Assembly: GCA_963756875.1 (NCBI GenBank)
Contig: CAVWPA010000003.1
Span: forward strand, 544,001 to 608,000
Direction of reading: 5' to 3'
DNA from: an uncultured Verrucomicrobiae bacterium
Lineage (GTDB): Bacteria > Verrucomicrobiota > Verrucomicrobiia > Chthoniobacterales > UBA10450
DNA: 64,000 nucleotides
Part shown: one piece after another, positions 4,703-40,323 of the stretch
How positions within the stretch are numbered: position 1 is the first letter of the stretch
Layout of the letters: each line of letters opens with the position of its first letter
Notes under the pieces: model-generated
The model's input: only the letters and a program-made list of their open reading frames with translations
Database searches by the model: none
Told to the model about the DNA's origin: nothing
Position numbers and translations under genes: made by a program

Positions 4703-4933
4703 TCAACCGGCGGCGCCGCGTTGGAGCAATGTGCTCAATGCACCGGCGGCGACGAAAATCGGCCAGGCGGAAAGGGCGACGATAAGGGCGAAGAAAATTA
4801 GTTCGATGGCAAACTCCCAATTCCTTTCGCGCGCGAAATAGTCTCGGGTTAACTTGCGGAACGATCGGCGCACTGCGGGCGCTTCCTGTGGTGTCCGTCT
4901 GGTTACCGTTTTTCTCACTTTGATGATGCTCAT
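4703..4933 (-). CDS. Small single-TM membrane protein, 76 aa (microprotein family copy A)
   Basis: ATG at 4933 (MSIIKV…), one hydrophobic helix, gapless similarity to ORF 40033-40323, immediately downstream of a Pho-box-like site. Confidence 0.65.
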   Translation of the reverse strand: MSIIKVRKTVTRRTPQEAPAVRRSFRKLTRDYFARERNWEFAIELIFFALIVALSAWPIFVAAGALSTLLQRGAAG

Positions 4934-4971
4934 AACTGAGCGTTGGATAATCCGATGAGCGGGAGGTGTCA

Positions 4972-5012
4972 GGTTACGAATTGTGAAGATCGCGTGACAA
5001 ACCGGTGACACC
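4972..5012 (-). promoter_or_regulatory. Pho-box-like (PhoB/OmpR-type) tandem direct repeats
   Basis: Minus strand TGTCAC-cggtt-TGTCAC-gcgat-CTTCAC-aatt-CGTAAC with 11/11/10-bp period, about 40 bp upstream of ATG 4933. Confidence 0.6.
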
Positions 5013-5122
5013 CTGAAGCTCCTTAATTCTGACTCATTTTGTAGCGGGGGCGCGGTCAGCGGCTTGGGCTGCGGGTTGTTGGCTTGCGCTCGGGAGAGCG
5101 GCGTAGTTTGATCGGTCCGTAA

Positions 5123-5575
5123 ATGGTCGCTGAAACTCCCGATAAATCCCGAGGCGCGGATGTGATCGTCCATGGTAATGCAAAGGATTTCCGGCAGGAG
5201 ATTCAGGCAGGCCCGCACCGGCTGGTCGCGGACGAACCGGTAGCGGACGGCGGCGGCGCCAAGGGGCCGTCTCCCTACGGCCTTTTGCTGGCTGCCCTGG
5301 GATCGTGCACATCGATGACCATCGGATTGTATGCGCGGCGAAAAGGCTGGCCGCTCGAAGAGATCACTGTTTCGCTCCGGCACTCAAAAATCTACGCCAT
5401 GGATTGCGCGGAATGCGAGACGAAGGAAGGCAAGATCGACCGGATCGAGCGGGACATTCATCTGACCGGATCGTTGACTGACGAACAGCGCGCCAGGTTG
5501 ATGCAGATCGCAGATATGTGCCCTGTTCACCGGACTCTGACATCCGAGATCAACATTAAGACCCGCGCGGTTTAA
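5123..5575 (+). CDS. OsmC/YhfA family protein
   Basis: ADEP…GG…GPSPY.LLLAALGSCT and CPVHRTL motifs. Confidence 0.9.
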   Translation: MVAETPDKSRGADVIVHGNAKDFRQEIQAGPHRLVADEPVADGGGAKGPSPYGLLLAALGSCTSMTIGLYARRKGWPLEEITVSLRHSKIYAMDCAECETKEGKIDRIERDIHLTGSLTDEQRARLMQIADMCPVHRTLTSEINIKTRAV

Positions 5576-5602
5576 GGTCCCATCGTGGATGGGAGTTCCA
5601 TG

Positions 5603-5654
5603 GGTAGGGTCAGCGCTCTGCGCTGACCGGACGGCGCAGCGCGCCGTCCCTACC
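5603..5654. repeat. GTAG-tagged REP-like palindromic dimer
   Basis: GGTAGGGTCAGCGC-tct-GCGCTGACC-GGACGGCGC-agc-GCGCCGTCCCTACC. Confidence 0.8.
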
Positions 5655-5675
5655 AGATCGGGATCACGTCCGCGA

Positions 5676-6863
5676 TCAGCGTTCGTGCAGGGCGATGCTT
5701 GAGCCGACCCATGTTTTGCCCTTGTTGAAATCGACGCCCATCATTTTGCCCTGGCTCATCCGGGCGAGATTATTTACGAGAACGGGTTCGCCATTGGCCG
5801 GCCAGAGGAACATCATTCGCAACTCCGCTTTCGATTTGGAACCGTCCGGTGTCGGCACAAACGGCACATAATCGATCTTCCTTTGCAAAATCCATTCGTG
5901 CGGAGTTTTTAACGCAGAGATTTTTTCATGCGCCGGTTCCATGTCGACTCCGATTCCAGCGAAGGAGTAGAGCGGTTTTAAAACATAATCGGCGATGTTC
6001 TCGCCGGCCGGAAATTCATCGGCGAAGAATGCGGGCGCAGTGTGTTCGGTTTTGATGAAAGGCAACGAATGTTTGCTGATCCGGTAATACCAGTTGGGAT
6101 GCGTCACCCAGGTGACATCGAGATCGTCCTGGAAACGGAACGGCAGCTCAAGATCGGCGCGCCGCGCCAACTCGTCGAAAATGACCCGATTATAGATGCG
6201 TTCGATTCGCACATCGCGTCCGTCGCGCTCGTAGAATAGTTGCCGCCCCCGCTTTTTCACTTTCGTCAGGCAAACCGTCCGCACGCCGAGCAGCGACTCC
6301 GTGCAGGCAAAATCGGTCCGCGTTTTCTGTTTCTCCGGCTCGATCTCCAGCAGGACCACGTTCTCCGGTTTGGCGTCGGCCACAATGGTCCGCCGCAGCA
6401 ACTCGATGTAAGCCTCGTCCGTGATTCCGCCAAATGACGATGTCCAGTTCGGCGGAATGGCCGGATATGCTTTGCGCATGCAACCAAGCGAGAGAAATTG
6501 AAATCCGAACAAGCTCGGGAAAGCCTGCAACTCGATCAGTCGCGGGACCAGTCGACCGCCCTCCTCGCAAATGCCGAGGTCGACGAGCAAAAATTCCGGA
6601 TGCGCCGACTCGCCAGGCACTTCCGAGCCGGCTGGGATCGCCGACGCGGCGTGCTTCGCGAACGCCGCGGTTTGTGTTTGCGCCGCGATCTTGTTCGCGG
6701 CGTAAACGGCTTCATCCGTGAATTCGCGGGTCAGGAAAATTGGCGTTTCCGAAACGGAGAAGTCGGCCGGCCATCGTGTGCTCTCATTCACGCAACGCAG
6801 GAACGACGCGTACTTCTCCACTGTGAAATCGGCGTTAAATCGATCGCGAAGTTGGGGATGCAT
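5676..6863 (-). CDS. ATP-grasp-like ligase (circularly permuted / glutathionylspermidine-synthase-like), unknown substrate
   Basis: PRLIELQAFPS, HPNWYYRISK, YVLKPLYSFAG.GV, WILQRK, ELRMM motifs typical of ATP-grasp-derived ligases. Confidence 0.6.
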   Translation of the reverse strand: MHPQLRDRFNADFTVEKYASFLRCVNESTRWPADFSVSETPIFLTREFTDEAVYAANKIAAQTQTAAFAKHAASAIPAGSEVPGESAHPEFLLVDLGICEEGGRLVPRLIELQAFPSLFGFQFLSLGCMRKAYPAIPPNWTSSFGGITDEAYIELLRRTIVADAKPENVVLLEIEPEKQKTRTDFACTESLLGVRTVCLTKVKKRGRQLFYERDGRDVRIERIYNRVIFDELARRADLELPFRFQDDLDVTWVTHPNWYYRISKHSLPFIKTEHTAPAFFADEFPAGENIADYVLKPLYSFAGIGVDMEPAHEKISALKTPHEWILQRKIDYVPFVPTPDGSKSKAELRMMFLWPANGEPVLVNNLARMSQGKMMGVDFNKGKTWVGSSIALHER

Positions 6864-6900
6864 TCCGGGCGGGGACGGATCTCCGAGCCGTCCAGCTTAT

Positions 6901-7920
6901 CTACACCAGAAACTTGCCACGTTGCATAACCTGTTCGCCGTCAAACCAGATGTCAAAGTCGCGGCCAACGCAGTCGATGTGCGTTTTGGAGATCCAGTTC
7001 GCGCCGGTGTGCTCGGCGTACGGGTGGCCGAAGGCGATGTGAACCCCCGGAATCTTTTCGTCCTGCAAGATATGCCCGATCACGTGCGTGCACGCGATGT
7101 TCGTGCCAATGGCAAATTCGCCGACACGATTGCTGTTTTCATCCGTGCTGGTGTAAAGGCGGAAATCGTCGCGCAGGTCCTTATTTTCCGAACGGAGATC
7201 GACGATCCGGTTGTTCTCGACCTCGATGGTAAGCGGGCTTGCCTCAAGATCGCCGTAGCGCTCGCACAGATAATCGCCAACTACGCCGTCAACGACAAAT
7301 GTCCCGTTTGTGTTCATGGGGGAAGTGAAAATTTCGCCGCCCGGAAGGTTGCCCCATTTGTCCTTTGTGATGATGCCGCTGGTTTTGAGCCACTTGAGCT
7401 TTGGAGAGAACTCCCCGACAAATTCGGTGCCGTGCTGTGTCTTACATGTGATGCGCTCTGCCTGACGCGCGCGTTCGACCAGTCGCTGGCTTAAATCATC
7501 CACGGCGTGGAAATCCGCACGCATGCCTTCCAGCATGATCTGCCGGTTGATGTTCACCATGTGGGCGTGGCGGATCCGGTGGTGGTTGACTACCGCCGTC
7601 ATTTCCGTGCGGGAACCGAGTTCGCCCGGCTGGCTTTGCGCCGCGAAGATCGACGCCTGCGAGCAGGCCAGGTCGTCCAGGATGATCTCGGGCATGAACT
7701 GAAGCGGGCGCCGCGCGTGATGCTCCAGCACAAACAGGCTGTATTCGGAACCGACACGTTCCACCTCCGTTTGCAATGCCGCCGCGATTTCGCGGGTGGC
7801 GGAGTCGGTGATAATCGTCATCCGCTCCCGCGGCTTGAGTCGCAAACAAACATTGATGGCATTGTGCGCACCGGGCATCAGCTCCGGATCAATCGGGTGG
7901 AAGTAAGCGCGGTCTGGCAT
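6901..7920 (-). CDS. Aminopeptidase, M29 (thermophilic metalloprotease)-like
   Basis: NLPGGEIFTSP, GEFAIGTN, QDEKIPGVHIAFG, HIDC metal-ligand motifs. Confidence 0.85.
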   Translation of the reverse strand: MPDRAYFHPIDPELMPGAHNAINVCLRLKPRERMTIITDSATREIAAALQTEVERVGSEYSLFVLEHHARRPLQFMPEIILDDLACSQASIFAAQSQPGELGSRTEMTAVVNHHRIRHAHMVNINRQIMLEGMRADFHAVDDLSQRLVERARQAERITCKTQHGTEFVGEFSPKLKWLKTSGIITKDKWGNLPGGEIFTSPMNTNGTFVVDGVVGDYLCERYGDLEASPLTIEVENNRIVDLRSENKDLRDDFRLYTSTDENSNRVGEFAIGTNIACTHVIGHILQDEKIPGVHIAFGHPYAEHTGANWISKTHIDCVGRDFDIWFDGEQVMQRGKFLV

Positions 7921-8046
7921 TTTCGAAAGTGCTCAGTTTTACGCTGAAACTTCGCGCGAGCAAATGGGCTTTGTCAGATCGGGGCCTGGCAAGGTCTCGA
8001 ATTTCTTGCGGCTGCGCTGTAAAAACAGGCCGACAAAGCTCGATCG

Positions 8047-9180
8047 TTACGCCGCCTTAACATTTGGAACATTCAACTGTTCGTACGTTTCGGCCACGAT
8101 TTGATCGACCACGGCATTGATATCGCCGGTCCGTTCCCACACTGCCAGCTGCCGGTCCGCTCCAGTGCCTTCGCGCATGATGCGTTCGATATGCGCCAGT
8201 TCGGCGTGACTGCCGAGCTCGTCGATCTCCGGCGCGATGAACTCGAGCATTTCGTGGAGTAGATCGCGCTCGTCCACCTCGCATTTGCGTCCGAAATCGA
8301 TCAACTTCCCGTCAAGCCCGTAGCGCGCGGCGCGCCACCGGTTTTCATCGATCAGACGGCGCGGATACATGCGGAAGGTAACGTTTTCCCGGCGCAACTT
8401 GTGTAATTTCACGACAATTGCCTGGATCAGAGCAGCGAGGGCGATGGTGTCGTCGACTCGCGACTGCGCATCGCAGATACGAAATTCGATGGTGTTAAAA
8501 AATGGATGGAGCCGAATATCCCACCAGATCTTCTTGGCATTATCGATGCAATTGGTGGAAACAAGCAGTTTCAGGTAATTGTCATAATCCGACAGCGACT
8601 CGAATACGTCGGGAATTCCAGTGCGCGGGAACCGCTCAAAAATCATTTGCCGATATGCCTTTAACCCGGTGTTCTGTCCCAGCCAGAAAGGCGAATTGAC
8701 CGAGAGCGCGTAAATGTGCGGGAGGAAATAGCGCGCCTGATTCATGACGTCGATCGCTTCTTCGCGATCCGGAATTCCCACATGCACGTGCAGCGCAAAA
8801 ATGAGATTGGCACGCGCAATCTGCTGCATGTCCTGTACGATCGTGGCATAGCGCTCGTCGGCCGTGATCAACTGGTCCATCCAGTGCGAAAACGGGTGTG
8901 TCCCGGCCGAGCCGATCTTTAGTCCATCATGCGCTGCGAGCACTGCCAACTGGCTTCGCAGTTCGATCACTTGTTGCCTCGCGTCGCACGTGTCTCTGCA
9001 GATCTCTGTATCCAGTTCGACGACCGACTGGTGCATCTCCGGTTTGACGTGTTGTTTTAAAATGATTTTTCCGTCCGCCAGGATTTCCTGAATGTGCGCG
9101 TGCAGGGCGCGCGTTTGCGGGTTGATGATCTGGAATTCCTCCTCGATGCCGAGGGTGAAGGTGTGATCGCGGTAAACCAT
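8047..9180 (-). CDS. ybdK: Carboxylate-amine ligase YbdK/GCS2 family (copy 2)
   Basis: TLGIEEEFQ, GTHPFS, LHVHVG, NSPFW, FPRTGIP, WWDIR.HP, EFRICD, ENRWRAARYG. Confidence 0.92.
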   Translation of the reverse strand: MVYRDHTFTLGIEEEFQIINPQTRALHAHIQEILADGKIILKQHVKPEMHQSVVELDTEICRDTCDARQQVIELRSQLAVLAAHDGLKIGSAGTHPFSHWMDQLITADERYATIVQDMQQIARANLIFALHVHVGIPDREEAIDVMNQARYFLPHIYALSVNSPFWLGQNTGLKAYRQMIFERFPRTGIPDVFESLSDYDNYLKLLVSTNCIDNAKKIWWDIRLHPFFNTIEFRICDAQSRVDDTIALAALIQAIVVKLHKLRRENVTFRMYPRRLIDENRWRAARYGLDGKLIDFGRKCEVDERDLLHEMLEFIAPEIDELGSHAELAHIERIMREGTGADRQLAVWERTGDINAVVDQIVAETYEQLNVPNVKAA

Positions 9181-9280
9181 CGGTGTCAGACTAATTCCTA
9201 CTGGGCCGGCAGACTCTCCCTCGCTTGGCGTTTGCTTTGCAAAAATTGTTCAGATCGCGGGCGCCGCAACATCGCACCCG

Positions 9281-10405
9281 TTACGCGGCTTTCGTGTTCA
9301 ACCCTTCATAGGTTTCCGCAACGATCTGGTCGACCACGGCTTTCATGTCGTGTGTTCGCTCGTACGCGGCCAGTTGCCGATCTGCGCCCGTTCCTTCGCG
9401 CATGACCCGTTCGATGTGCGCCATTTCCCGCTTGCTGCCAAGCTCACCGACCTCGGTTGAAACGAACTCGAGCAGCTCCCCCAGCAAACTGCGCGCGTCG
9501 ACTTCGGCTTCCTTGCCGAAATCGATCAGTTTTCCGTCGATTCCGTAACGCGCCGCGCGCCAGCGATTTTCGTCGAGGAGGCGGCGTCGATAAACACGAA
9601 AAGTGATGTTCTGCCAGGTCAGTTTGTAAAGCTTGGCAATCACAGCCTGGATCAGCGCAGCGATGGCCAGGGTATCATCTATTCGTGATTGCGCGTCGCA
9701 TACCCGCACCTCAAGCGTGTTAAAAACCGGGTGAAGCCGAATGTCCCACCAGATCTTCTTTGGGTTGTCGATACAGCCGGTTTTGATGAGCAATTTGCAA
9801 TAATCTTCGTACTCGGAGAGCGACTCGAAGGAGTCGGGAATGCCGGTGCGGGGAAAACGTTCGAACACCTTCAGGCGATAACCTTTCAGGCCGGTGTTGC
9901 GGCCGACCCAGAACGGCGAGTTGACCGAAAGCGCATAAATATGCGGCAGGAAATAACGCACCTGATTCATGACGTGAATGGCCGATTCGCGATCGGGGAT
10001 TCCGACGTGCACGTGCAATCCAAAGATGAGATTGGCTCGTGCCAGCAACTGCATGTCTTTGACGATTTCCTGATAGCGCTCGCCTTCGGTGATCAATTGA
10101 TCGTGCCAATGGGAAAAAGGATGCGTCCCGACCGAGGCAATCTTGAGGCCGCCGCGTCCGGCTAGCTCGGCCAGTCTGCTGCGCAATTCGCCGACGTGCT
10201 CCCGAGCACACGAAATCGAATCGCAAATCTCAGTGCCCAGCTCGACTACCGATTGATGCATTTCCGGCTTGATCTGTTCTTTCAGTGTGACTTTGCCGCC
10301 TTCGAGAATTTCCTGAATATGCGAGCGCAATTCGCGCGAAACGGGGTCGATAATCGCAAACTCCTCCTCGATCCCGAGAGTGAACGTATGCTCCTTGGCG
10401 CTCAT
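9281..10405 (-). CDS. ybdK: Carboxylate-amine ligase YbdK/GCS2 family (copy 1)
   Basis: Same GCS2 motifs as its neighbour; start taken at MSAKEHTF. Confidence 0.92.
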   Translation of the reverse strand: MSAKEHTFTLGIEEEFAIIDPVSRELRSHIQEILEGGKVTLKEQIKPEMHQSVVELGTEICDSISCAREHVGELRSRLAELAGRGGLKIASVGTHPFSHWHDQLITEGERYQEIVKDMQLLARANLIFGLHVHVGIPDRESAIHVMNQVRYFLPHIYALSVNSPFWVGRNTGLKGYRLKVFERFPRTGIPDSFESLSEYEDYCKLLIKTGCIDNPKKIWWDIRLHPVFNTLEVRVCDAQSRIDDTLAIAALIQAVIAKLYKLTWQNITFRVYRRRLLDENRWRAARYGIDGKLIDFGKEAEVDARSLLGELLEFVSTEVGELGSKREMAHIERVMREGTGADRQLAAYERTHDMKAVVDQIVAETYEGLNTKAA

Positions 10406-10439
10406 GGCGGACCACAAATGTCCTTCAAAAACAACACGC

Positions 10440-10548
10440 TGTCATCCCGAGTCGCGGAGACGACGAGGGACCTCGCAAAAACACAATGATCACACAGGTT
10501 GCCTTGTGTGAGGCCTCGCCGTTGCGAGATCCTTCAGCTGCGCTCAGA
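10440..10548 (+). repeat. GTCATCC-tagged (CGTC-type) palindromic repeat
   Basis: TGTCATCCCGAG…GAGGGACCTCGC…GCGAGATCCTTC…GCTCAG; a related half-element GATCCTTGGCTTCGCTCGGGACAAC lies near 19845. Confidence 0.55.
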
Positions 10549-10655
10549 AGCACGAATTTCGAATCAATGACGAAGCACCCGCCTTCGCTGTGCTGCGGCG
10601 CGGCAGGCAAATGACGAATGCCCATTCGTGATGCGCAACGCGCTTGTTGATTTCG

Positions 10656-11639
10656 TCATTTTTCTTCCAGCTCTTGTGCGAGTTCGCCTAACGAACGTTT
10701 CGTCACCGCGGCCTGCATGAACCTGCCCCAGCTCAAATTGTCACGGCCGGGAACGTGTTCGCGCGCTTTGCGTATGGCCATCTCCGAGACCGCTTCCACC
10801 ACCCATTCGAAGCTCGGCTGGCCGATCATGGCCGCTTCCGCGTCCGGGGCGGGGTTGCAAAAATCGATCGCGACCGGAACACCGTCGCGTATTGCAAACT
10901 CAACCGTGTTCAGATCGTAGCCGAGAAACTGATTCAGTTTAACCACGCCTTCTTCCACCTTTTCCACAACCTCCTTTGGCGCGTGCCATTCTGTTTGATA
11001 GCGCAAATGGTAGGGATGTCGCGGCTCATACGGCATGAGGCGAACATGGCGCTGGTCGATGGAGTAACAGCGAAAGTACATGTCGAATTTTACTTCCTCC
11101 TGCAGCATCATGACCAGTTGGCCGGTCTCGTTGTAAGCGCGAAAAAACTCCTCCCGGTTGTGTAATCGGTAGACATTTTTCCAGCCGCCGCCCGCGTATG
11201 GTTTGAAAAACGCCGGCCAGCCGACGTAGCTGAAAATTCCCTCCCAATCGAGCGGGTAACCGAGATTGCGAAACGATTTGTCGTTCGTGTCAGGCGGCGG
11301 TTGGTTGGACGGCAGCAAAACTGTGCGCGGAACGGCCACGTCGATTTTGGTGGCCAGGGCATTGTTAAAAAACTTCTCATCGGCGCTCCACCAAAACGGA
11401 TTGTTCACGACAGCCGTCCCGCTCAGCGCGGCGTTTTTAAGCCAGGCCCGATAGAAGGGCACGTCCTGCGAGATCCGGTCGATCACGACATCGTAGCCGC
11501 ATGGCTCGCCTTGAAGCACCTTCTCGATCTTGACGAACTCCGCGACAATCTCTTTGCCACCCGTCTTCTGGTTGACGCGATCGACGAACGCCGGAGGGAA
11601 ACTATGTTCCTGGCCAAAAAGGATTCCGATTTTTTTCAT
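10656..11639 (-). CDS. RimK/glutathione-synthase-like ATP-grasp ligase
   Basis: IDRISQ, NNPFWWSADEKF, VPRTVLLP, FFKPYAGGGWK, MLQE, TVEFA, IDFCNP motifs. Confidence 0.82.
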   Translation of the reverse strand: MKKIGILFGQEHSFPPAFVDRVNQKTGGKEIVAEFVKIEKVLQGEPCGYDVVIDRISQDVPFYRAWLKNAALSGTAVVNNPFWWSADEKFFNNALATKIDVAVPRTVLLPSNQPPPDTNDKSFRNLGYPLDWEGIFSYVGWPAFFKPYAGGGWKNVYRLHNREEFFRAYNETGQLVMMLQEEVKFDMYFRCYSIDQRHVRLMPYEPRHPYHLRYQTEWHAPKEVVEKVEEGVVKLNQFLGYDLNTVEFAIRDGVPVAIDFCNPAPDAEAAMIGQPSFEWVVEAVSEMAIRKAREHVPGRDNLSWGRFMQAAVTKRSLGELAQELEEK

Positions 11640-11649
11640 AAATTCGTTA

Positions 11650-11744
11650 GGTAGGGACAGCTCTCTGAGCCGTCCGATTTATTCAGTCTCCGGTGCGCTG
11701 CGCAAGAGGAATTCGCCGGACGCTCACGAAGGTGCGTCCCTACC
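11650..11744. repeat. GTAG-tagged REP-like inverted pair
   Basis: GGTAGGGAC…GTCC … GGACG…CGTCCCTACC. Confidence 0.75.
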
Positions 11745-11749
11745 ATTCC

Positions 11750-17164: not shown

Positions 17165-17166
17165 TC

Positions 17167-31734: not shown

Positions 31735-31762
31735 GCTCAATTGGCTCCGCTCAAACGCGAGT

Positions 31763-31823: not shown

Positions 31824-32682
31824 ATTGATCTTGTTGCTTCCCCAGCAGGCAAACCGCAGACCATGGACGATTCGCGCGAAACCGGGTTGGCGAGATTTTC
31901 GCGATGAGACGCAGAAAGAACGGCAGCCGGTGTATTTCGGCTGCCGCGTGGAGAATTGGATGCGCCTCTTCAGGCTTCCAACCACAGTGTGTGAAAAATT
32001 CAGGACCCTCCTGCGGCGCAAATCTCAGCGGGGCGCCCGCCTGATCGAGGGGCGCGCCCATCTTTTTCGCCAACATTTTCATCAGCGCGGGGGAAGCCAA
32101 ATCAATGATCCAGTTTTGAAAGGGCGCTGAAGCGGCGAGATCCCTGGCAAGCGCCGCGACTTCCTCTTCGGTCAGGTAAACGAGCAACCCCTCGGTAACA
32201 ATCAACACTCGGTTCGCTCGTCGGCCCAATTCTGAGAACAGTTCGCGACGAGCTGCGGCATTCGAGAGATCCAACCGAACACGCTCCAGCGCACACACCG
32301 GCTTCTCGCTTCGAAGGATCTCTTCCTTGTATCCGAGAATTTCCGGCAGATCGACTTCGATCCATTGCAAAGAAGGGGGCAAGTCCATGCGGTACGGGCG
32401 AGTGTCGAGCCCTGCGGCGAGATTGACGACCATGTCCGCGCCTTTGTGTATTTGATCGGAGATGAATTGGTCGAACAGCCACGTGCGCGCGACGAAAGGC
32501 CAGGAATGTTTTTCGGTGAACGGGATGGACGCGGCGATGTGCTCCCCGCGTTCGCCTGCGAGTCTGCGCGCGAACGGATCGCGAAATACCGCGTCAGGCC
32601 GTTCCGTTTCTCGCGCGCGATAAACGGCCACCCAACGCGCCGTGTCGGAGATATTGCGAATTTGTGATTCCGGCTCGTTCAT
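31819..32682 (-). CDS. SAM-dependent methyltransferase (LCM/TIGR00027-like)
   Basis: TARWVA.YRARE, F.DPFA, RT..FD, LAAGLDTRPYR, EVDLP, TEGLL.YL; start at MNEPESQ. Confidence 0.9.
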   Translation of the reverse strand: MNEPESQIRNISDTARWVAVYRARETERPDAVFRDPFARRLAGERGEHIAASIPFTEKHSWPFVARTWLFDQFISDQIHKGADMVVNLAAGLDTRPYRMDLPPSLQWIEVDLPEILGYKEEILRSEKPVCALERVRLDLSNAAARRELFSELGRRANRVLIVTEGLLVYLTEEEVAALARDLAASAPFQNWIIDLASPALMKMLAKKMGAPLDQAGAPLRFAPQEGPEFFTHCGWKPEEAHPILHAAAEIHRLPFFLRLIAKISPTRFRANRPWSAVCLLGKQQDQL

Positions 32683-32715
32683 CTGCTCTTTGAATATAAG
32701 CCAGCGAAGAGGGAA

Positions 32716-32800
32716 ACGTCGAACGTCCAACGCTGAACGCCCAATGTCGAACTGGCATCTTCTGAATTGGACGTTGAGCGTTGGACGTTGGGCGTTCGGC
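32716..32800. repeat. Heptamer tandem repeats (CGTTGGA/CGTTGAG family) in inverted arrangement
   Basis: acgtcgaacgtccaacgctgaacgcccaatgtcga … ttggacgttgagcgttggacgttgggcgttcggcgtt. Same family near 54548, 55883, 59364, 59521 and 63915. Confidence 0.75.
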
Positions 32801-32820
32801 GTTTGCTTCCTTCTTCGGAC

Positions 32821-32902
32821 TGCCAGGGAGGGGACTCGAACCCCTAAGGATTGCTCCACCAGATCCTAAGTCTGGCGCGTCTGCCAATTTCGCCACCCTG
32901 GC
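32821..32902 (-). tRNA. tRNA-Leu (anticodon TAG)
   Basis: GCCAGGG…TGGCAGACGCG-CCAGA-CTTAGGA-TCTGG, long variable arm, GGTTCGAGTCC, …CCCTGGCA. CCA is not encoded. Confidence 0.96.
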
Positions 32903-32975
32903 TGCCGAAGTTTAGATTTTAAGTTCCGGATGCGTGAATTCAAACGCCGATTACAGCATGGATCTTCGCCGCGTT

Positions 32976-32993
32976 TTGACACAGAAACGTAAC
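32976..32993 (+). promoter_or_regulatory. Possible Pho box
   Basis: TTGACAC-agaa-ACGTAAC with 11-bp period, about 60 bp upstream of the PlcP-like gene. Confidence 0.4.
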
Positions 32994-33050
32994 AAAACTC
33001 ACTTTGTCCTTGGCGTTCGTTAGGTGATAAATTGGTCCCAAGCTTCAAGG

Positions 33051-33905
33051 ATGCGATACCTCAATGCGCCGCAGCCTTCGCTTGCAGAGCCGGCCCGCGA
33101 AGTCGGCGGCGAGCGGCGTTTTCGCGCGGCTTGGATCTCGGACATTCACCTGGGCACGCGCAGCAGTAACGCGCTGGCATTGCTGGATTTTCTGCGAGAT
33201 CACGACGTGGCCACGCTTTATGTGGTGGGAGACCTCATTGATATCTGGCAGCTTCGGCGCGGGATTTACTGGCCACAGCAGCAAAATGACGTCATCCAGA
33301 AAATTTTGCGGAAGGCGCGAAAAGGGACGCATGTCATCTATATCCCGGGCAACCACGATGAGTTTGTGGCCGGGTTCGAGGGAAACTACGGGAACATCAC
33401 AATTCAGAAGCATGCAATCCACACTACGACCGACGGCCGGCGGATCCTGGTCATTCACGGGCATGAGCTGGACACGGTGGTGCAGAACGCGAAGTGGCTG
33501 GCGTTTGCCGGCGACGTTGGCTACCAATTTCTGTTATCGCTGAATCCGGCGATCAATTTCGTGCGCAGACACTTTGGCCTGGGCTATTGGTCGCTAAGCG
33601 CCTACGCCAAGAAGCGGGTTAAAGACGCGGTCAGTTTCGTGGGCCAATTTGAGAAGGCCGTCGCCCATTTTGCGGAGAAGTATTCGGTGGACGCGGTGCT
33701 CTGCGGTCATATTCACAGCGCCGCCATCCGGCAGATAGAAGACATTACGTATTATAATTGCGGCGATTGGGTGGAAACCTGCTCGGCGCTGGTCGAGCGC
33801 AACGATGGAACGATTGAAATGGTAAAGTACGAGCCGTTCTCCGCGGCGAGGCCGTCGTCGGTCCCTCCGCAACGCCTTATGCCTGTCGAGGCGGGCCGAA
33901 TGTGA
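33051..33905 (+). CDS. Metallophosphoesterase, LpxH2/PlcP-like (UDP-2,3-diacylglucosamine diphosphatase family / phospholipase C)
   Basis: ISDIHLG, VGDLID.W, PGNHD, IHG, WSLSAY.K, CGHIH, YYNCGDWVE. Confidence 0.85.
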   Translation: MRYLNAPQPSLAEPAREVGGERRFRAAWISDIHLGTRSSNALALLDFLRDHDVATLYVVGDLIDIWQLRRGIYWPQQQNDVIQKILRKARKGTHVIYIPGNHDEFVAGFEGNYGNITIQKHAIHTTTDGRRILVIHGHELDTVVQNAKWLAFAGDVGYQFLLSLNPAINFVRRHFGLGYWSLSAYAKKRVKDAVSFVGQFEKAVAHFAEKYSVDAVLCGHIHSAAIRQIEDITYYNCGDWVETCSALVERNDGTIEMVKYEPFSAARPSSVPPQRLMPVEAGRM

Positions 33906-34063
33906 GAGACATGAATCGACCGCGCGCCCGGTTGGACTGAACTTCTCTATTTCGCAGCATTAGACAAAATCATTCGCCGGCGGCGTCTAGTAATTGAATC
34001 CAATTGCAGATCTCCTGCATCCTATTGGTTAACGAATAAGCAGATGCGGCTACTTCTTTTCAT

Positions 34064-36481
34064 ATGATGACTGATCTTCGTTTCGCTCTTCGCCAATTAT
34101 TTAAATCGCCCGGGTTTACTTTGCTGGCGTTGATCACGCTGGCTTTGGGCATCGGGCTGAACACCGCCATCTTCAGCCTGATCAACGATCTGTTCCTAAA
34201 GGGCCTGCCTTTTAAGGAGCCGTCCCGGGTTTTGCACCTTTACTGCGGAGTGAAAGGCCAGGAACCGCTGAATTATCCGATCTCGGCGCCCCGCTTTCTG
34301 CATTATCGCGAAGGTCAGACAATTTTTTCGGGCATCGCCGCGGAGAGATTCTCCACGTTTACGCTCACGGGAGTGGGTGAGCCGGTCCAGTTCTTTGGCA
34401 GAAAAGTAACATCCAACTATTTTGACGTGCTCGGTGTTCGGCCCATTCACGGCCGCAATTTTCTGCCGAAGGAAGAAGAAACGGCTGACGTGGCGCTCGT
34501 GTCGGAGAATTTCTGGCAGAAACAACTGGGCGGCGATCCGAATGTCATCGGCCGCAGCATCACCCTGGATGGAGTGGCGCACACGATTGTCGGCGTTCTG
34601 CCGAACATGCCGGCCGCCTGGTTTGGGCCGAACGCACAAATCTGGACGACGAAACCGATGGAGATTCCCGGATTTTCCCACGAACGAATGATGCGCGGGA
34701 CCGGTTTTCTGCGGGTAATCGGCCGACTGAAACCCGGCGTGACTCTGCAGCAGGCGCGCGCGGCATTGCCTTCACTCGAACAGAGTTATCGTGCCGAGAA
34801 TCCCGGCAAGATAGACAGTCTCTTCGTCACCGTAGTGAAAACGTTGCCGGAGGATGTGAGCGGCGATTTGCGGCCGGCCTTTACAACACTGCTTGCCGCG
34901 GTGGCTTTCGTGTTGCTCATCGCGTGCAGCAACGTTGCCAATTTGTTGCTGGTTCGTTTCAGCGGCCGGCGCCGCGAGATCGCGTTGCGCATGGCGCTGG
35001 GCGCGTCGCGCGCGAGCGTTCTCCGGCTCTTCATTTTCGAAAGTCTGCTGGTAAGCGTGGCGGCGGGCGTCGTAGGTGCTTTGCTGGCGTGGCGGTTGGT
35101 GCCGCTCGTTCCGAAAATGGCGGCGAACTTTCTCCCGCTCGAGCCCACGAACGGTGCGGGACTTTCGATCCCGGTGCTTGGATTCACCGTTGCGCTTTCG
35201 CTGCTTACAGGATTGCTCATGGGAATTTATCCCGCGTGGCAAAGCTCGCGCGCCGATCTGGTGGAGGGCCTCAAGGAAGGCGGTCGCGGAACCAGCGGCA
35301 GCCTTCGTCAGCAACGCTTTCGGAAAGTTCTGGTCGGCGCGCAGGTCGCGCTCTCGGTCACATTAGTCGCAGGCGCGGCCCTGCTGATTACCAGTTTTGT
35401 GCAATTGAGCCGGCAGAATATTGGCTTCAACCCCGAAAACCTCTGGGTGGGCGGCATCACGCTGCGTCAGGCTCAATACCCGGATGTTGCCACCCGCGCG
35501 CGATTTATCGACAGGACCCTGGCCGCGTTGCACGCCGTTCCCGGGATCGAAAGCGCGTCGCTCAGCTCCGACATTCCTTTGAACGGCGGAAGCCTGGTCT
35601 TTTACGCGCGTGCCGACCGTGAAGTTTTGCCCGTGGAGAAGCGTGCAGCGGCTCCCGGACATGAAGTTTCGCTGGGATATTTTCGCAACTGGGGGATTCC
35701 CATTTTATCCGGACGCGACTTCAACAAACATGATACTGCCGATGTGCAGAAAGTGGTGCTGATTAGTCAGGCAGGCGCGCGAAAAGTTTTTGGCAACGAA
35801 AATCCAATCGGCCACACGCTTTTGCTGACGAGCGACGGTGTGCCGGCGCAAATTATTGGCATTGTGGGAGACGTGCGCGGGCAGCGAGTGGCCCAACCGA
35901 CAGACATGGAATTTTACCGGTCGCTGGCGCAGGCCAATTTCCCATTCTTCAGTATCGCGGTCCGCAGCAGACTCAAACCGGAACCGGTGACCAAGCTTGT
36001 GCAATCGGCGCTGGCCCCGATCGATCCCGGGCTTGCCATCGCCCAACCGCAAGCGATGGACACGATCGTCGCCCAGGCGCTGGGCCAGGCGCGATTGATG
36101 ATGTGGTTGCTTGGGATCTTTGCGGGCGTTGCTTTGTTGCTGGCCACGGTGGGGATTTACGGCGCGGTTGCTTACACGGTTGAGCAGCGCACCGGGGAAA
36201 TCGGCGTGCGTATGGCGCTCGGCGCGCAGACCGCCGACATCCTGCGATTAATCGTAAACCAGGGGATGCGACCTGTCGTTTTTGGTCTGGTCGCCGGTTT
36301 AGCAGCGGCGCTTGCGCTGGGACGGTTGATTGCTTCGCAGCTTTATCAAACTTCGACGCACAGTCCGACACTGCTTTCGGCCACGCTCGTCATTCTCGGT
36401 GCGGCGGCGTTGGCCGCCTGTCTGATTCCTGCGAAGCGCGCAACGCTTGTCAATCCTGTCGAAGCGTTGCGGGCGGAATAG
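34064..36481 (+). CDS. ABC transporter permease, duplicated MacB/FtsX (ADOP-type)
   Basis: DLRFALRQL.KSPGF, ALGIG.NTAIFS, LLIACSNVANL, RREIA.R.ALGA, EIGVRMALGA, P..RA..VNPVEALRAE. Confidence 0.93.
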   Translation: MMTDLRFALRQLFKSPGFTLLALITLALGIGLNTAIFSLINDLFLKGLPFKEPSRVLHLYCGVKGQEPLNYPISAPRFLHYREGQTIFSGIAAERFSTFTLTGVGEPVQFFGRKVTSNYFDVLGVRPIHGRNFLPKEEETADVALVSENFWQKQLGGDPNVIGRSITLDGVAHTIVGVLPNMPAAWFGPNAQIWTTKPMEIPGFSHERMMRGTGFLRVIGRLKPGVTLQQARAALPSLEQSYRAENPGKIDSLFVTVVKTLPEDVSGDLRPAFTTLLAAVAFVLLIACSNVANLLLVRFSGRRREIALRMALGASRASVLRLFIFESLLVSVAAGVVGALLAWRLVPLVPKMAANFLPLEPTNGAGLSIPVLGFTVALSLLTGLLMGIYPAWQSSRADLVEGLKEGGRGTSGSLRQQRFRKVLVGAQVALSVTLVAGAALLITSFVQLSRQNIGFNPENLWVGGITLRQAQYPDVATRARFIDRTLAALHAVPGIESASLSSDIPLNGGSLVFYARADREVLPVEKRAAAPGHEVSLGYFRNWGIPILSGRDFNKHDTADVQKVVLISQAGARKVFGNENPIGHTLLLTSDGVPAQIIGIVGDVRGQRVAQPTDMEFYRSLAQANFPFFSIAVRSRLKPEPVTKLVQSALAPIDPGLAIAQPQAMDTIVAQALGQARLMMWLLGIFAGVALLLATVGIYGAVAYTVEQRTGEIGVRMALGAQTADILRLIVNQGMRPVVFGLVAGLAAALALGRLIASQLYQTSTHSPTLLSATLVILGAAALAACLIPAKRATLVNPVEALRAE

Positions 36482-36493
36482 GTAACGCCGCAT

Positions 36494-36531
36494 GTCCCAA
36501 AAACGGAACAGCATCTTCCCAGACATGGAAC
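36494..36531 (+). promoter_or_regulatory. Putative bEBP enhancer (two 16-bp quasi-palindromes, 22 bp apart)
   Basis: GTCCCAAAAACGGAAC (36494) and TTCCCAGACATGGAAC (36516); mirrors the pair at 39825/39847. Confidence 0.65.
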
Positions 36532-36608
36532 ATCTGCGACCGCTTCATTCGAACCTGCCGAATCTCAATTGTCTGGAGTCCAGCTATTTATAACTGCAGT
36601 TCATTTCG

Positions 36609-36624
36609 TGGCACACGGGGTGCA
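36609..36624 (+). promoter_or_regulatory. Sigma-54 promoter (-24/-12)
   Basis: TGGCAC-ACGGG-GTGCA, 45 bp upstream of ATG 36654. Confidence 0.72.
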
Positions 36625-36653
36625 TAACGAGTGGCATCAACCAAACAAAACCT

Positions 36654-36869
36654 ATGAACGAACAATTCGAATCCACTTACGCCCTGTTAATGCGCTCGGA
36701 AGAAAAAGGACGCAGCATTCTGGAAATTGTGCTCTACGCCGCCTTCATTCTCAGTGCGATCGCCGGTATCTGGCAGCTTGCACAAACTCCGGTAAACATT
36801 ACTGCTCCCGGACTGGAGCGGTGCACTGTATGCCAAATCTCCGACGCGCAGGTTCCTGAGCGGAGCTAA
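36654..36869 (+). CDS. Small single-TM membrane protein, 71 aa, with C-terminal CxxC (microprotein family copy B)
   Basis: ATG directly after a sigma-54 promoter; TM segment EIVLYAAFILSAIAGIW; CTVC. Confidence 0.65.
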   Translation: MNEQFESTYALLMRSEEKGRSILEIVLYAAFILSAIAGIWQLAQTPVNITAPGLERCTVCQISDAQVPERS

Positions 36870-37012
36870 AGCTAATCCACTCAGCACTCATCGGGCGACC
36901 ATTAGCTGCGCGGAAGTTGCGTCTTTCCGATGGTTATTTCGCGCAGCGAGTGACGGTAGATTCAGCTTTCATCGGATTGACACCGCGCCGGAAACGCGGT
37001 TGAGAAGTAGCC

Positions 37013-38359
37013 GTGGCCAGAGTCTTAATCGCGGATGATCAGCGCGACGTGCTTGAAGCGCTTCGCATTCTTCTAAAGAGCGAAGGCCACCAGACCGATG
37101 CGGTGACTTCGCTGGCAGGCGTTTTCAACTCGTTGGAAAAGCGAGATTACTCGCTCCTGATGATGGATCTTAATTACACGCGTGACACGACCTCGGGTCA
37201 GGAAGGCCTGGAAGTTATCCCAAAGATTCAGCAGATCGACGGCACTTTGCCGATCGTAGTCATGACGGCCTGGGCAACGATCGATCTTGCGGTTGAGGCG
37301 ATGAAACGCGGCGCGCGCGATTTCGTGACAAAACCGTGGGACAACGAACGGTTGTTGACGATTGTCCGTACGCAGATCGAACTTGCCGGGGCCTTGCGCC
37401 GCGGCCAAAAGCTCGAGGCGGAAAACCAGCTGCTCCGCGGCACTGCGCCGAATCTCATCGCGGAATCTTCCACGATGCGGCCGGTCATCGAAATGATCTC
37501 ACAGGTCGCGCCATCCGACGCGAATGTGCTGGTCACCGGAGAAAACGGAACGGGAAAGGGATTGGTGGCGCAAGCGCTCCACTCGCTCTCGCCGCGCGCT
37601 GCCAAATCGATGATTACGGTAAACATGGGCGGCCTCTCCGAGACACTTTTCGAGAGCGAGCTGTTTGGACACGTGAAAGGAGCATTCACCGATGCCAAGA
37701 GCGATCGCGCCGGCCGATTCGAGCTCGCGGACGGAAGCACGCTTTTTATGGACGAAATCGCGAACATTCCGCTCAATCAGCAGGCAAAATTGCTCCGCGT
37801 GATCGAGACCGGCGAATTCGAGCGGGTAGGTTCTTCAAGAACCTTGCACGCAAATGTTCGGATTATTTCCGCCACGAACGCGAACCTGAATGATGAAGTT
37901 GCTGCCGGTCGCTTTCGTCGGGATTTGCTCTTCCGGTTAAACACAATCGAAATCCCGTTGCCTCCGCTGCGCGACCGGCGCGACGATATCATGCCGCTGG
38001 CGGGGCATTTTTTGCGCCAGCATGTCCAGCGGTATCGCAAACAGATTGCCGGGTTCGACGAAACGGCCCGGGAACGGCTGATGCAACATTCTTTTCCGGG
38101 CAATGTTCGAGAACTGGATCACGTCATCGAGCGCGCTGTTTTGATGACGCGCAGCCCGCAGATCAAAGCGGCGGACCTGGGTCTGGCGACTGGCCGGGAC
38201 GATTCACGAAGTCTCGAAGAGATGAGCCTCGAAGAAGTCGAAGCTTTTCTGATCAAAAAAGCGCTGGCGAGAAATGACGGGAACGCGCGCAAAGCCGCCG
38301 AGGCGCTGGGGTTGAGTCGAAGCGCATTTTATCGGCGGCTTCAACAATATGGATTATGA
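37013..38359 (+). CDS. Sigma-54-dependent response regulator (NtrC/Fis family bEBP)
   Basis: REC (IADD…MDLN), TGENGTGK, ESELFGH.KGAFTDA, RDLLFRLN, FPGNVREL, C-terminal HTH. Confidence 0.96.
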   Translation: MARVLIADDQRDVLEALRILLKSEGHQTDAVTSLAGVFNSLEKRDYSLLMMDLNYTRDTTSGQEGLEVIPKIQQIDGTLPIVVMTAWATIDLAVEAMKRGARDFVTKPWDNERLLTIVRTQIELAGALRRGQKLEAENQLLRGTAPNLIAESSTMRPVIEMISQVAPSDANVLVTGENGTGKGLVAQALHSLSPRAAKSMITVNMGGLSETLFESELFGHVKGAFTDAKSDRAGRFELADGSTLFMDEIANIPLNQQAKLLRVIETGEFERVGSSRTLHANVRIISATNANLNDEVAAGRFRRDLLFRLNTIEIPLPPLRDRRDDIMPLAGHFLRQHVQRYRKQIAGFDETARERLMQHSFPGNVRELDHVIERAVLMTRSPQIKAADLGLATGRDDSRSLEEMSLEEVEAFLIKKALARNDGNARKAAEALGLSRSAFYRRLQQYGL

Positions 38360-38442
38360 ACTGTGGAGGCGGCCTCGCGTGCCGGCTGGCGGCAAGTCCA
38401 AACACTTCGCTGGGCGACACCTTCGCCGCGCACAGGGCAGAA

Positions 38443-39780
38443 ATGAATCCGGCGATCGAAGAAGGCCGGCATCGTGTTTCGCACGAGAACCATCTGACAT
38501 GGCTCGCCTTCGGAGCCGCTGCGCCGGCGATTGTCGTCGTCCTTATCATTCTTTGGTTTGGGGATTACAGCGCCAAGGTGCAATGGACGCTGACCCTTCT
38601 CATTATCGGCTCCTTTGTGGGATTCATCGCCAGCGCTCGCGAACGTCTCGTTCGTCCGCTGCAAACAATGACGAATCTCCTGGCGGCGCTGCGGGAAGGA
38701 GACTATTCGATCCGCGCGCGCGGCGCGCGAGACAACGATGCTCTTGGCGAGGCGCTCCTTGAAATCAATTTGTTAGGCGAAACGCTGCGCGTGCAGCGAC
38801 TTGGCGCATTCGAAGCGACCGCGCTGCTTCGCACGATCATGGCGGAGATCGACGTGGCAGTATTTACCTTCGATCCCGACCGGCGCCTGCGCTTGGTGAA
38901 TCGCGCCGGCGAACATTTGCTCGGGCATCCCATGGACAAACTGCTCGGCCGCAACGCAGACCAGCTGGGACTCGCGATTTGCCTGGATTCGAACGAAGAC
39001 GCGCCGCTCACGTTGAATTTTCCCGGCGCGTCCGGGCGGTGGGGTGTTCGACGAAGCACTTTTCGCGAACACGGCTTGCCGCATGAGTTGCTGGTGCTCA
39101 CCGATCTCAGCCGCACCTTGCGCGAAGAAGAACGCAGCGCGTGGCAGCGGCTCGTTCGCGTGCTCGGACACGAAATGAACAACTCGCTGGCGCCGATCAA
39201 ATCGATCGCTGCCAGCCTGGAGACACTTCTTCAACGTCAACCGCCGCCGGTCGACTGGCAGGACGATGCGCGCAGCGGCTTGAAGTCGATTGCTGCGAGA
39301 GCAGGCGCGCTGAGCCGTTTTATGGAAGCGTACGCCAGGCTGGCGCGTTTGCCCCCGCCGCAAAAAGAAGACATCGATCTTGGAGAACTCGTTCGGCGGG
39401 TGGTGAATCTGGAGCCGCGTTTGCGAGTGAATGTTTTACCGGGTCCGGAAGCAAGAATCAGCGCCGATGCTGCTCAGATCGAGCAGGCATTGATCAATCT
39501 CGTGCACAACGCGGTCGATGCGTCACTGGAAACTGGCGGCAAAGTTTCGATGGGCTGGCGCGCGAACGGAGACTGCGTGGAAGTTTTTATCGACGACGAG
39601 GGTCATGGAATCATGAACCCGACCAATTTGTTCGTTCCGTTTTTCACAACCAAACCGGAAGGGTCCGGCATCGGTCTGGCGCTCAGCCGCCAGATTGCGG
39701 AAGCGCACGGCGGTTCGCTCAGCGTCAGCAACCGCCTCAATCGCGCCGGAGCGGAAGCGCTGCTTCGGATTCCTCGTTAG
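38443..39780 (+). CDS. Sensor histidine kinase (2 TM, HAMP/PAS-like)
   Basis: WQRLVRVLGHEMNNSLAPI (H box), NLVHNA, D.G.G, FVPFFTTK, GSGIGL. Alternative start at 38356. Confidence 0.93.
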   Translation: MNPAIEEGRHRVSHENHLTWLAFGAAAPAIVVVLIILWFGDYSAKVQWTLTLLIIGSFVGFIASARERLVRPLQTMTNLLAALREGDYSIRARGARDNDALGEALLEINLLGETLRVQRLGAFEATALLRTIMAEIDVAVFTFDPDRRLRLVNRAGEHLLGHPMDKLLGRNADQLGLAICLDSNEDAPLTLNFPGASGRWGVRRSTFREHGLPHELLVLTDLSRTLREEERSAWQRLVRVLGHEMNNSLAPIKSIAASLETLLQRQPPPVDWQDDARSGLKSIAARAGALSRFMEAYARLARLPPPQKEDIDLGELVRRVVNLEPRLRVNVLPGPEARISADAAQIEQALINLVHNAVDASLETGGKVSMGWRANGDCVEVFIDDEGHGIMNPTNLFVPFFTTKPEGSGIGLALSRQIAEAHGGSLSVSNRLNRAGAEALLRIPR

Positions 39781-39824
39781 AGCAAAAATAGGAGACGCTC
39801 TGCGCAACGAGCGCCTCTAGAACA

Positions 39825-39862
39825 GTCCCAAAAGCGGGACGAAGGAGTCCCGCAACTGGAGC
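39825..39862 (+). promoter_or_regulatory. Putative bEBP enhancer (two 16-bp quasi-palindromes, 22 bp apart)
   Basis: GTCCCAAAAGCGGGAC (39825, perfect GTCCC/GGGAC arms) and GTCCCGCAACTGGAGC (39847). Confidence 0.7.
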
Positions 39863-39938
39863 AGTTTTTCTAACATCGTTTTTTTGATCATGTTGTAAAC
39901 TGCTTATGTTCAATTATTTGTGACTTTGTTTTGTGCGG

Positions 39939-39954
39939 TGGCACGCGCATTGCA
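39939..39954 (+). promoter_or_regulatory. Sigma-54 promoter (-24/-12)
   Basis: TGGCAC-GCGCA-TTGCA, consensus match, preceded by an AT-rich tract. Confidence 0.85.
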
Positions 39955-40032
39955 ATAGGGAGCGCGCGACAGGAAAAACTTGAATCCAATCAGTCACCGA
40001 GACGCATCTTAAAAGAACAAAGCATTATTAAT

Positions 40033-40323
40033 ATGAAACCCGTTTCACTCATTCAGAACAGCCAGCAGGACGCGAATCGCCGCTTTCCGGTGATCGACCG
40101 CAATTATCACGCGCTCGAGCTTGGCGAATTCAAATCGCGCTGCGCCGGAACATTGCCTTCCTCTTTCGCACAGATTAGCTGCAACTATTTTAACGTCGAA
40201 GCGCGCCGCCATTTTCTCATCGAAGGCGTTTTGTTTGCCATGATCGCGGTCACGGCGATGCCCGCGATTTGGGATTGCGGTCGCGCGATTATCCAACTGC
40301 TGCGCGCGGTCGGTGGAATGTGA
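40033..40323 (+). CDS. Small single-TM membrane protein, 96 aa (microprotein family copy C)
   Basis: ATG at 40033 (MKPVSL…) after a sigma-54 promoter; gapless similarity to 4703-4933 and 36654-36869. Confidence 0.68.
   Translation: MKPVSLIQNSQQDANRRFPVIDRNYHALELGEFKSRCAGTLPSSFAQISCNYFNVEARRHFLIEGVLFAMIAVTAMPAIWDCGRAIIQLLRAVGGM

Follow-up and report, generated by a model that had tools for sequence, protein, structure and literature searches.

Two lineage-restricted families of small membrane proteins behind signal-type promoters in a Udaeobacter-like verrucomicrobial genome

Signal-induced small membrane proteins encoded together with a pump or a two-component system are an already known kind of gene product. 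MgrB and SafA are small membrane proteins induced by two-component systems that feed back on PhoQ, and PspB, PspC and PspG are small inner-membrane proteins of the sigma-54 dependent phage-shock regulon, which deals with envelope stress. Among the pump-associated examples, VraH binds VraE, AcrZ modulates AcrAB and YknW acts on YknXYZ, as far as the cited part of the source goes (PMC5985334), and YsaD, encoded by the leading gene of a kinase-controlled Bce-like operon, modulates signal relay, again going by the part of the source cited (PMC7438565). Here we describe three open reading frames (ORFs), termed A, B and C, which encode candidate proteins of this kind in a stretch of 64,000 nucleotides (nt), hereafter the window, of the 2.69-Mb genome of an uncultured bacterium of the Chthoniobacterales (assembly GCA_963756875.1; three contigs, completeness 87.6%).

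A preliminary description of the window had proposed that A, B and C are paralogs of a single unannotated family, each being the first gene behind a regulated promoter. All three ORFs are present where they had been placed (Table 1), and their starts are backed by ortholog alignments (MS[VI]IT for A, MN for B and MKP for C); longer 5' starts are possible for A and C, yet the orthologs begin at the starts first assigned. A ends a phosphate gene cluster. B and C belong to a locus in which a MacB-type permease gene (at 34064) is followed by a promoter, B, the gene of an NtrC-type activator, the gene of a histidine kinase, a second promoter, C and an HlyD gene.

Two families and their distribution

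Judged from sequence, there are two families: the A/C family, for which alignments A1 and A3 are the definition, comprises A and C, and a separate one, defined by alignment A2, contains B. BLASTP aligned A with C at 18/53 identities with one gap (E = 4e-6), and the 15/48 identities counted in the preliminary description were reproduced in the ungapped family alignment. A jackhmmer search seeded with C recovered A at 1e-19, and the A3 profile, run against all ORFs of the source genome, found A at 1.8e-17 and C at 4.3e-29. The source genome carries four copies of this family, namely A, C, C1:39586-39879 (-) and C1:52333-52644 (+). Tandem A/C-family genes adjoin each other at G008:C1:1585636-1586254 (L134) and G175:C18:461339-461940, so that the family grows by local duplication.

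The proposal that B is a third paralog failed every statistical test run. The A/C profile placed B at rank 98 of 40,062 genome ORFs (E = 49), the B profile placed C at rank 5 (E = 1.5), and hhalign comparison of the B and A/C families gave probabilities of 19.9% and 13.7% over 31 columns, which is chance level. B and C matched at E = 1e-3 in a single pairwise comparison, and B and A gave no pairwise match. The residue register noted earlier for B is real as a pattern, E-x7-E-x3-[FY]-A occupying the same 31 columns, but it comes with no statistical evidence of common descent. B is moreover accompanied by two paralogs of its own in the source genome, C3:1470860-1471054 (+) and C1:448619-448822 (-), which the B-family profile recovered at 6.4e-29 and 1e-26 next to B itself at 7.9e-33. 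Since the A/C profile misses B, the profile-profile probability is low and B has paralogs of its own, it is treated here as the type of a second family.

The core shared by the A/C family, SFRxISxxYFxxEARxxFxxE, leads into a hydrophobic helix, behind which comes a tail that is short and amphipathic. A itself consists of a basic N-terminus, the motif SFRxLTRxYFxxE, one transmembrane helix and a short tail. F53, E56, E64 and F68 do not vary among 23 aligned sequences, and in an alignment of 115 rows F45, Y52, F53, E56, E64 and F68 are at least 90% conserved over all A/C subgroups. AlphaFold2, given the same 115 rows, modelled C with a predicted local distance difference test score (pLDDT) of 75.5 and with residues 60-90 above 90; residues 1-44 are predicted to be unstructured, followed by a helix at 45-55 and a second at 58-94 that contains the transmembrane segment. 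The subgroups diverge at their N-termini: an MKPT start together with an FPxTDxNY motif marks the C, AC3 and AC4 types, the N-terminus of A types is short and basic, and a separate 'mini' type has about 50 amino acids (aa). B was modelled as a single helix (4-44) with an unstructured C-terminal tail of 27 residues. The motif of its family is ESTYALLVRSEEKxRxxLE, preceding a transmembrane helix that ends in IWQFA. The tail of B holds a CxxC pair at residues ~55-60, which is kept in the nearest orthologs (L026-L029, L033, L079) and missing in the paralogs B2 and B3. In the alignments of both families the basic residues lie mostly on the N-terminal side of the helix, a charge distribution from which we infer an N-in, tail-out topology; A, B and C would thus be tail-anchored proteins with the helix near the C-terminus and a short tail outside.

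All three ORFs are protein-coding. The median ratio of nonsynonymous to synonymous substitution rates (dN/dS) for C was 0.42 in frame versus 0.95 and 1.24 in the shifted frames (52 orthologs, 94 pairs with dS 0.1-1), and 0.50 over all 454 pairs with dS 0.1-1.5. Corresponding medians were 0.40 versus 0.88 and 1.43 for the B family (15 sequences, 23 pairs) and 0.29 versus 1.19 and 1.21 for the A type (9 sequences, 26 pairs). Codon-level conservation, on which the earlier proposal depended, is thus evident for the A type, the B family and C, and the in-frame values indicate a selection that is purifying but rather relaxed. They also bear on whether these are cis-acting leader ORFs, of which the translation and not the product would control the downstream genes. 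A promoter-proximal position and the mere 22 nt from the stop of C to the HlyD start would suit such leaders, but it is the amino acid sequence that is conserved, with positions at least 90% identical across paralogs, purifying selection is seen in the reading frame only, the ORFs are as long as 71-96 aa and stand-alone paralogs exist, all of which makes a leader function very unlikely.

Both families are confined to the taxonomic family of the source genome. In a profile survey of 250 genomes of the order (counts include three unpublished genomes, G002, G007 and G014), the A/C family was found in 29/29 genomes of that taxonomic family and the B family in 28/29, and neither occurred in the 221 genomes from the order's 15 other families. 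Genomes hold 1-9 matches to the A/C family and 0-4 to the B family. Searches with single proteins gave the same picture, C and A each being matched in 24/24 other same-family genomes and B in 23/24; among 16 genomes of other families in the order there was no match to B or C and one weak match to A. At E <= 1e-3 the A/C profile further matched 597 of 1.84 billion cluster representatives, 295 of them also at E <= 1e-10. The best 150 of these 597 are 65-187 aa long, their match reaches the C-terminus, and no fused form was seen among them. A word-based homolog search with C returned a single relative.

The preliminary description had recognised no Pfam family for these proteins, and this was upheld and extends to NCBIfam, PHROGs, PADLOC and PDB profiles. 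Pfam gave no family for A or B, and the seven own-genome proteins searched were without a match at E <= 10 except for one chance-level match of C (E = 0.15; 11.7 bits versus a cut-off of 28.9); Pfam presumably contains models for MgrB, AcrZ, PspB/C/G and the Hok/TisB and DUF883 types. NCBIfam and PADLOC searches returned nothing, PHROGs nothing below E = 0.02, and PDB profile searches matched no solved structure (best E = 0.042). The only neighbours in the ESM Atlas were unnamed hypothetical clusters of Verrucomicrobiota, and a search of the literature on Udaeobacter small proteins and on verrucomicrobial small membrane proteins found no description of either family.

Small, hydrophobic, multi-copy, lineage-restricted and stress-induced products also call to mind type I toxin-like membrane peptides (TisB/Hok-like), which would be depolarising. 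The toxin families of Pfam and PADLOC were, however, unmatched; the genes are part of sense operons whose synteny is conserved, neither an antisense gene nor a repeat was seen, and the proteins have long conserved cytoplasmic N-termini. A toxin function is accordingly very improbable.

Control of the three genes

B and C are each preceded by a predicted sigma-54 dependent promoter, the criterion being a GG and a GC element spaced by 10 nt (TGGCAC-N5-TTGCW) and, some 100 nt upstream of them, a site for the activator. At both genes TCCC-N6-GGRAC begins 113-114 nt upstream of the promoter, and at B a clear second copy follows after another 22 nt. Only these two of the 44 sigma-54-like sites of the source genome show this enhancer spacing (a third has the motif at -134), in agreement with the sigma-54 promoters and matching enhancers first reported before B and C. 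The arrangement is conserved. Among 53 C orthologs (starts fitting MK[PSTA]; six with MKH or MKN starts were left out), the strict promoter pattern occurs in 47 and a pattern that also allows TTGCG in all 53, as does an enhancer at -112 to -115, against a genome background of 0.018 matches per 220 nt. Of 13 B-family loci from other genera, 10 carry a sigma-54 promoter 31-48 nt upstream of the ATG, and all ten have the enhancer doublet GTCCC-N6-GGAAC / GTTCCC-N6-GGAAC.

A search of five other genomes with the composite enhancer-promoter pattern gave 11 sites versus 0 for the reversed control. Four of them precede B genes, another four C genes, and the remaining three orthologous genes of an 829-aa MacB-type permease, suggesting that the activator's regulon is made up of B, C and genes of MacB-type exporters. 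This third promoter (L165 G006:C4, L166 G020:C2, L167 G021:C1) stands about 32 nt before the permease gene with no small ORF between them, and no such site was seen in the source genome, which is 87.6% complete.

A is under a different type of control. The Pho-box-like array reported upstream of it was confirmed as a sequence feature. The source genome contains no other three-repeat match, and the four-repeat array is visible in 9/10 A-type upstream regions compared (the window and eight loci), the divergent A-type copy of L126 being the one in which it was not seen. The cluster that ends in A comprises genes for a PhoB-like regulator, a PhoR-like kinase, pstSCAB, phoU, a 744-aa ORF, a 229-aa ORF, a histidine phosphatase, CHAD and CYTH, the pst and regulator names being assigned from gene order, gene size and a single PhoU search. 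An A-type gene with CHAD downstream of it is found in the window and also in L014, L015, L018 and L019; other A-type copies adjoin phoU-pst genes or phosphoesterases. CGTCAC-N5-CGTAAC was found upstream of pstS; the relaxed two-repeat pattern is too common to prove anything, with 109 matches in the genome and 3 seen versus 0.67 expected in the 33 kb scanned. From this gene context phosphate control of A is well supported, and a PhoB-type regulator probably binds the array. As had been proposed, the three genes come under at least two regulons, A under Pho and both B and C under one of the NtrC-type sigma-54 kind.

The leader of C contains a second conserved element, both blocks of which are invariant or nearly so in 40/40 long-leader orthologs; eight further C orthologs have short leaders that lack it. 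The blocks were also considered as RNA structure, and this was rejected: no consensus structure was obtained, only three trivial pairs with zero covariation, and the reading adopted for the blocks is that of a promoter motif. The pattern TGAATCC-N16/17-(C)GCATC[TC][TC]A has nine sites in the source genome, each 36-85 nt before an ORF on the same strand, versus a rough chance expectation of ~3.6. The ORFs behind them are C, the AC3 paralog, two MacB-type permeases of 800 aa (one at 34064) and five others, several of them starting with an N-terminus of the membrane or secretion type. The motif looks like the promoter of a regulon governed by a sigma factor of the extracytoplasmic function (ECF) type. 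Terminator-like sites after A and B were no commoner than in shuffled sequence.

Coding test, distribution and promoters together support the earlier view of A, B and C as real, conserved, lineage-specific small membrane proteins behind signal-type promoters. Three types of control (Pho-box-like array, sigma-54 and ECF-like motif), several A/C matches per genome in unrelated but conserved contexts, six positions kept across all A/C subgroups, and the ECF-like motif before the AC3 paralog and envelope proteins would all suit general stress-induced tail-anchored proteins, with a shared core that has the same task in each paralog. Such a core could tether a soluble partner or ribosomes, or stabilise the membrane, with N-termini and promoters setting timing and partner; the place beside exporters would on this view be one context among several and would not mark a subunit. 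Yet C is fixed before an HlyD gene, B often precedes a MacB-type permease and the enhancer is the same across genera, and there is no similarity to ElaB/YqjD-type or other Pfam families; we therefore consider a general role somewhat unlikely.

The exporter-kinase locus and a proposed role

The HlyD gene that follows C opens a series of exporter genes, in the order HlyD adaptor, ABC ATPase, two duplicated MacB-type permeases, second ATPase and two FtsX-type permeases. Loci gathered with the NtrC-type activator as query (80 loci, orthologs 70-88% identical) carry a C-type gene downstream of the kinase gene in 59 cases. Twenty are without an A/C match: 14 end too early, judged from locus lengths, two are from Opitutaceae and four have room for the gene. 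In L072 the only A/C member among the matches lies upstream. Of ten Pfam-scanned C-type loci from other genera, seven have HlyD next on the same strand and two more have ABC and MacB-type genes with the intervening stretch unscanned; L160 differs. The same-strand gene after B, in 13 loci, encodes a MacB-type permease in six (including the unpublished L029), an NtrC-type regulator in one, a TetR in one and other products in five.

The paralogs lie in other surroundings. B3 precedes genes for TetR, an adaptor and an AcrB-type pump, genes for a hybrid kinase and a triple-receiver protein come before B2, and the AC3 type follows a ComM-like gene. The AC4 type stands alone and is convergent with its neighbour, so that members of the family do not always lead operons. 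First place behind a promoter, as originally described for all three genes, holds for B and C; A is separated by 245 nt from the next gene, with which it may or may not be co-transcribed.

Small ORFs also occur upstream of the NtrC-type gene, the place of B in the window. AC4-type members are found directly upstream of it at L045:2368-2643 and L064:7339-7749, where no sigma-54 promoter was found with the pattern used. In Opitutaceae bacterium EW11 (L117:7597-7931) an unrelated 98-aa ORF with two hydrophobic stretches lies behind a sigma-54 promoter between an FtsX permease gene and the NtrC-type gene. A small membrane ORF in this place was considered as a general theme and rejected, candidates being present in only 4 of 75 loci with at least 650 nt upstream (a B-family gene in L079, an A/C gene in L045, the Opitutaceae ORF in L117 and a 65-aa candidate in L082); the upstream ORFs of L101 and L120 look unrelated or fragmentary.

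Gene context and regulon membership favour a link of B and C with the MacB-type exporter module. We propose, with a probability of roughly 0.4 and by analogy with VraH, AcrZ, YknW and YsaD, that B and C are N-in, tail-anchored accessory or feedback subunits of this exporter-kinase module. Each gene would be expressed only on a signal, phosphate starvation for A and one NtrC-type/sigma-54 two-component system for B and C, with C additionally under the ECF-like promoter. The two transmembrane helices of the kinase are joined by a conserved loop of only 8 residues (GDYSAKVQ; the start at 38443 agrees with orthologs), so that it has no outside sensor domain and probably senses via membrane partners. 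This kinase would activate the NtrC-type regulator, and the MacB-type exporters would then be made together with B and C, which may take their place in the membrane next to the exporter, the kinase or both, and either tune transport or tune the signal that passes from the transporter back to the kinase. Their action would be comparable to that of AcrZ, VraH, YsaD or MgrB in other bacteria.

Several observations weigh against this proposal. A/C paralogs without exporter or kinase neighbours (beside CYTH/CHAD, beside a ComM-like gene or stand-alone) indicate that the family core is not specific to this exporter, which speaks for a more general role in the membrane. The two Opitutaceae loci, in which the activator is 70-71% identical, have a sigma-54 promoter directly before the HlyD gene and no C-like ORF there, and together with the third promoter, likewise without a small ORF, they suggest that the module works without such a protein. 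Four of the 80 activator loci (L057, L062, L069 and L082) have enough sequence and no A/C match at E <= 1e-3; the gene may have been lost, moved or become too divergent. A dN/dS of 0.4 is also high for a subunit with a tight interface.

In a further reading the two families would be a new class of signal-induced connector microproteins, whose conserved juxtamembrane glutamates and helix would dock onto sensor kinases without an outside domain and report to them the state of a partner machinery. B and C would dock onto the kinase that partners the NtrC-type regulator, A onto the PhoR-like kinase, and the states reported would be those of the MacB-type exporters and the Pst transporter; we hold this to be unlikely. 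Each of B and C is the small leading gene of an exporter operon, and could as such encode an exported hydrophobic peptide (bacteriocin-like or signalling), that is, cargo of the HlyD/ABC/MacB-type exporter. MacB-type pumps do export peptides and small proteins, as the cited part of the source has it (PMC5985334), and the CxxC in the tail of the nearest B orthologs would suit a peptide of this sort. No signal or double-glycine leader is visible, however, and the basic N-terminus with a hydrophobic helix of ~20 residues is typical of a membrane anchor. A/C paralogs also lie far from any exporter, and both families are kept in nearly every genome of the taxonomic family (29/29 and 28/29) where patchiness would be expected of cargo; an exported peptide is quite improbable. 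A role of B and C as subunits beside the exporter or kinase remains the reading that we prefer for the locus.

Table 1. Features of the window and related sites in the source genome.
Feature	Position	Strand	Basis
A, A/C-family protein (A-type subgroup), 76 aa	4703..4933	-	ORF + orthologs
B, B-family protein, 71 aa	36654..36869	+	ORF + orthologs
C, A/C-family protein (C-type subgroup), 96 aa	40033..40323	+	ORF + orthologs
Enhancer doublet of B, GTCCC-N6-GGAAC / TCCC-N6-GGAAC	36494..36531	+	pattern scan
Predicted sigma-54 promoter of B, TGGCAC-N5-GTGCA, 45 nt before ATG	36609..36624	+	pattern scan
Enhancer of C, GTCCC-N6-GGGAC, with weaker second copy	39825..39862	+	pattern scan
Predicted sigma-54 promoter of C, TGGCAC-N5-TTGCA, 94 nt before ATG	39939..39954	+	pattern scan
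ECF-like motif TGAATCC-N17-GCATCTTA, in C leader	39981..40011	+	ortholog conservation
ECF-like motif TGAATCC-N16-GCATCCTA, before 805-aa permease	33995..34024	+	pattern
Remaining ECF-like motif sites	C1:252681, C1:356129, C1:39932 (-), C3:1140669, C3:1615343, C3:1269375 (-), C3:1239934 (-)		
Pho-box-like array, four hexamers (TGTCAC, TGTCAC, CTTCAC, GTAACC), 11-nt spacing	4972..5010	-	pattern
CYTH gene, downstream of A	3985..4458	-	phosphate cluster
CHAD gene, downstream of A	3051..3968	-	phosphate cluster
Phosphate cluster	C3:536679-549383 (window 1-5575 and preceding 11 kb)	CHAD, CYTH on strand of A	
MacB-type permease, duplicated, 805 aa (MacB_PCD + FtsX), upstream of B	34064..36481	+	Pfam
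NtrC-type sigma-54 activator (receiver + AAA+ + HTH_8)	37013..38359	+	Pfam
Histidine kinase, two transmembrane helices, HAMP-like stretch	38443..39780	+	Pfam, ortholog comparison
Exporter genes after C	40345..50720	+	Pfam

Significance and comparison with known systems

What is new here is the two sequence families, limited to one bacterial family, the reuse of one of them under three promoter types, and the highly regular sigma-54/enhancer layout. The hosts, Udaeobacter-like Chthoniobacterales, are uncultured and among the most abundant soil bacteria. Antibiotic tolerance has been reported for Udaeobacter-like bacteria. The locus forms a complete conserved circuit of sensor-less kinase, NtrC-type activator, defined enhancer, sigma-54 promoters and MacB-type exporters, and its sole non-transporter products are two undescribed microproteins. 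If B and C tune the exporter or its signalling, they would offer a new handle on the control of MacB-type pumps and show the reuse of a small membrane module across regulons; were they instead to connect kinases with partner machineries, the verrucomicrobial lineage that is most abundant in soil would have reused one module in several of its regulons. If neither is the case, two well-supported families are still added to the poorly charted repertoire of small proteins in soil bacteria.

MgrB and SafA, the analogy drawn in the preliminary description, differ from the proteins described here, which show no Pfam similarity to them and are encoded with a kinase that lacks a periplasmic domain. PspB, PspC and PspG resemble B and C as small inner-membrane proteins under predicted sigma-54 control, but there is again no Pfam match, and in the present locus the activator carries a receiver domain and is paired with a kinase, its regulon being made up of exporters. 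AcrZ (E. coli AcrAB-TolC) is, like B and C, a single-helix small protein co-regulated with its pump, the efflux of which it modulates according to the part of the source cited (PMC5985334); its context is echoed by that of the B3 gene, although the own-genome proteins have no Pfam match. VraH (Staphylococcus aureus VraDEH) shares with B and C that a small membrane protein is encoded with a pump, in its case a BceAB-type one whose permease it binds, raising resistance, as stated in the cited part of PMC5985334; likened by description only, it differs in having two transmembrane helices and a downstream place in the operon. YsaD (Lactococcus lactis YsaDCB / TCS-G) is, in the portion of its source cited and by description only, a secreted peptide of a Gram-positive host with an OmpR-type regulator (PMC7438565), whereas B and C look membrane-anchored and sigma-54 dependent. 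Its arrangement is nevertheless that of B and C, a small leading gene in an operon for a transporter of the MacB superfamily, under the control of an adjacent two-component system.

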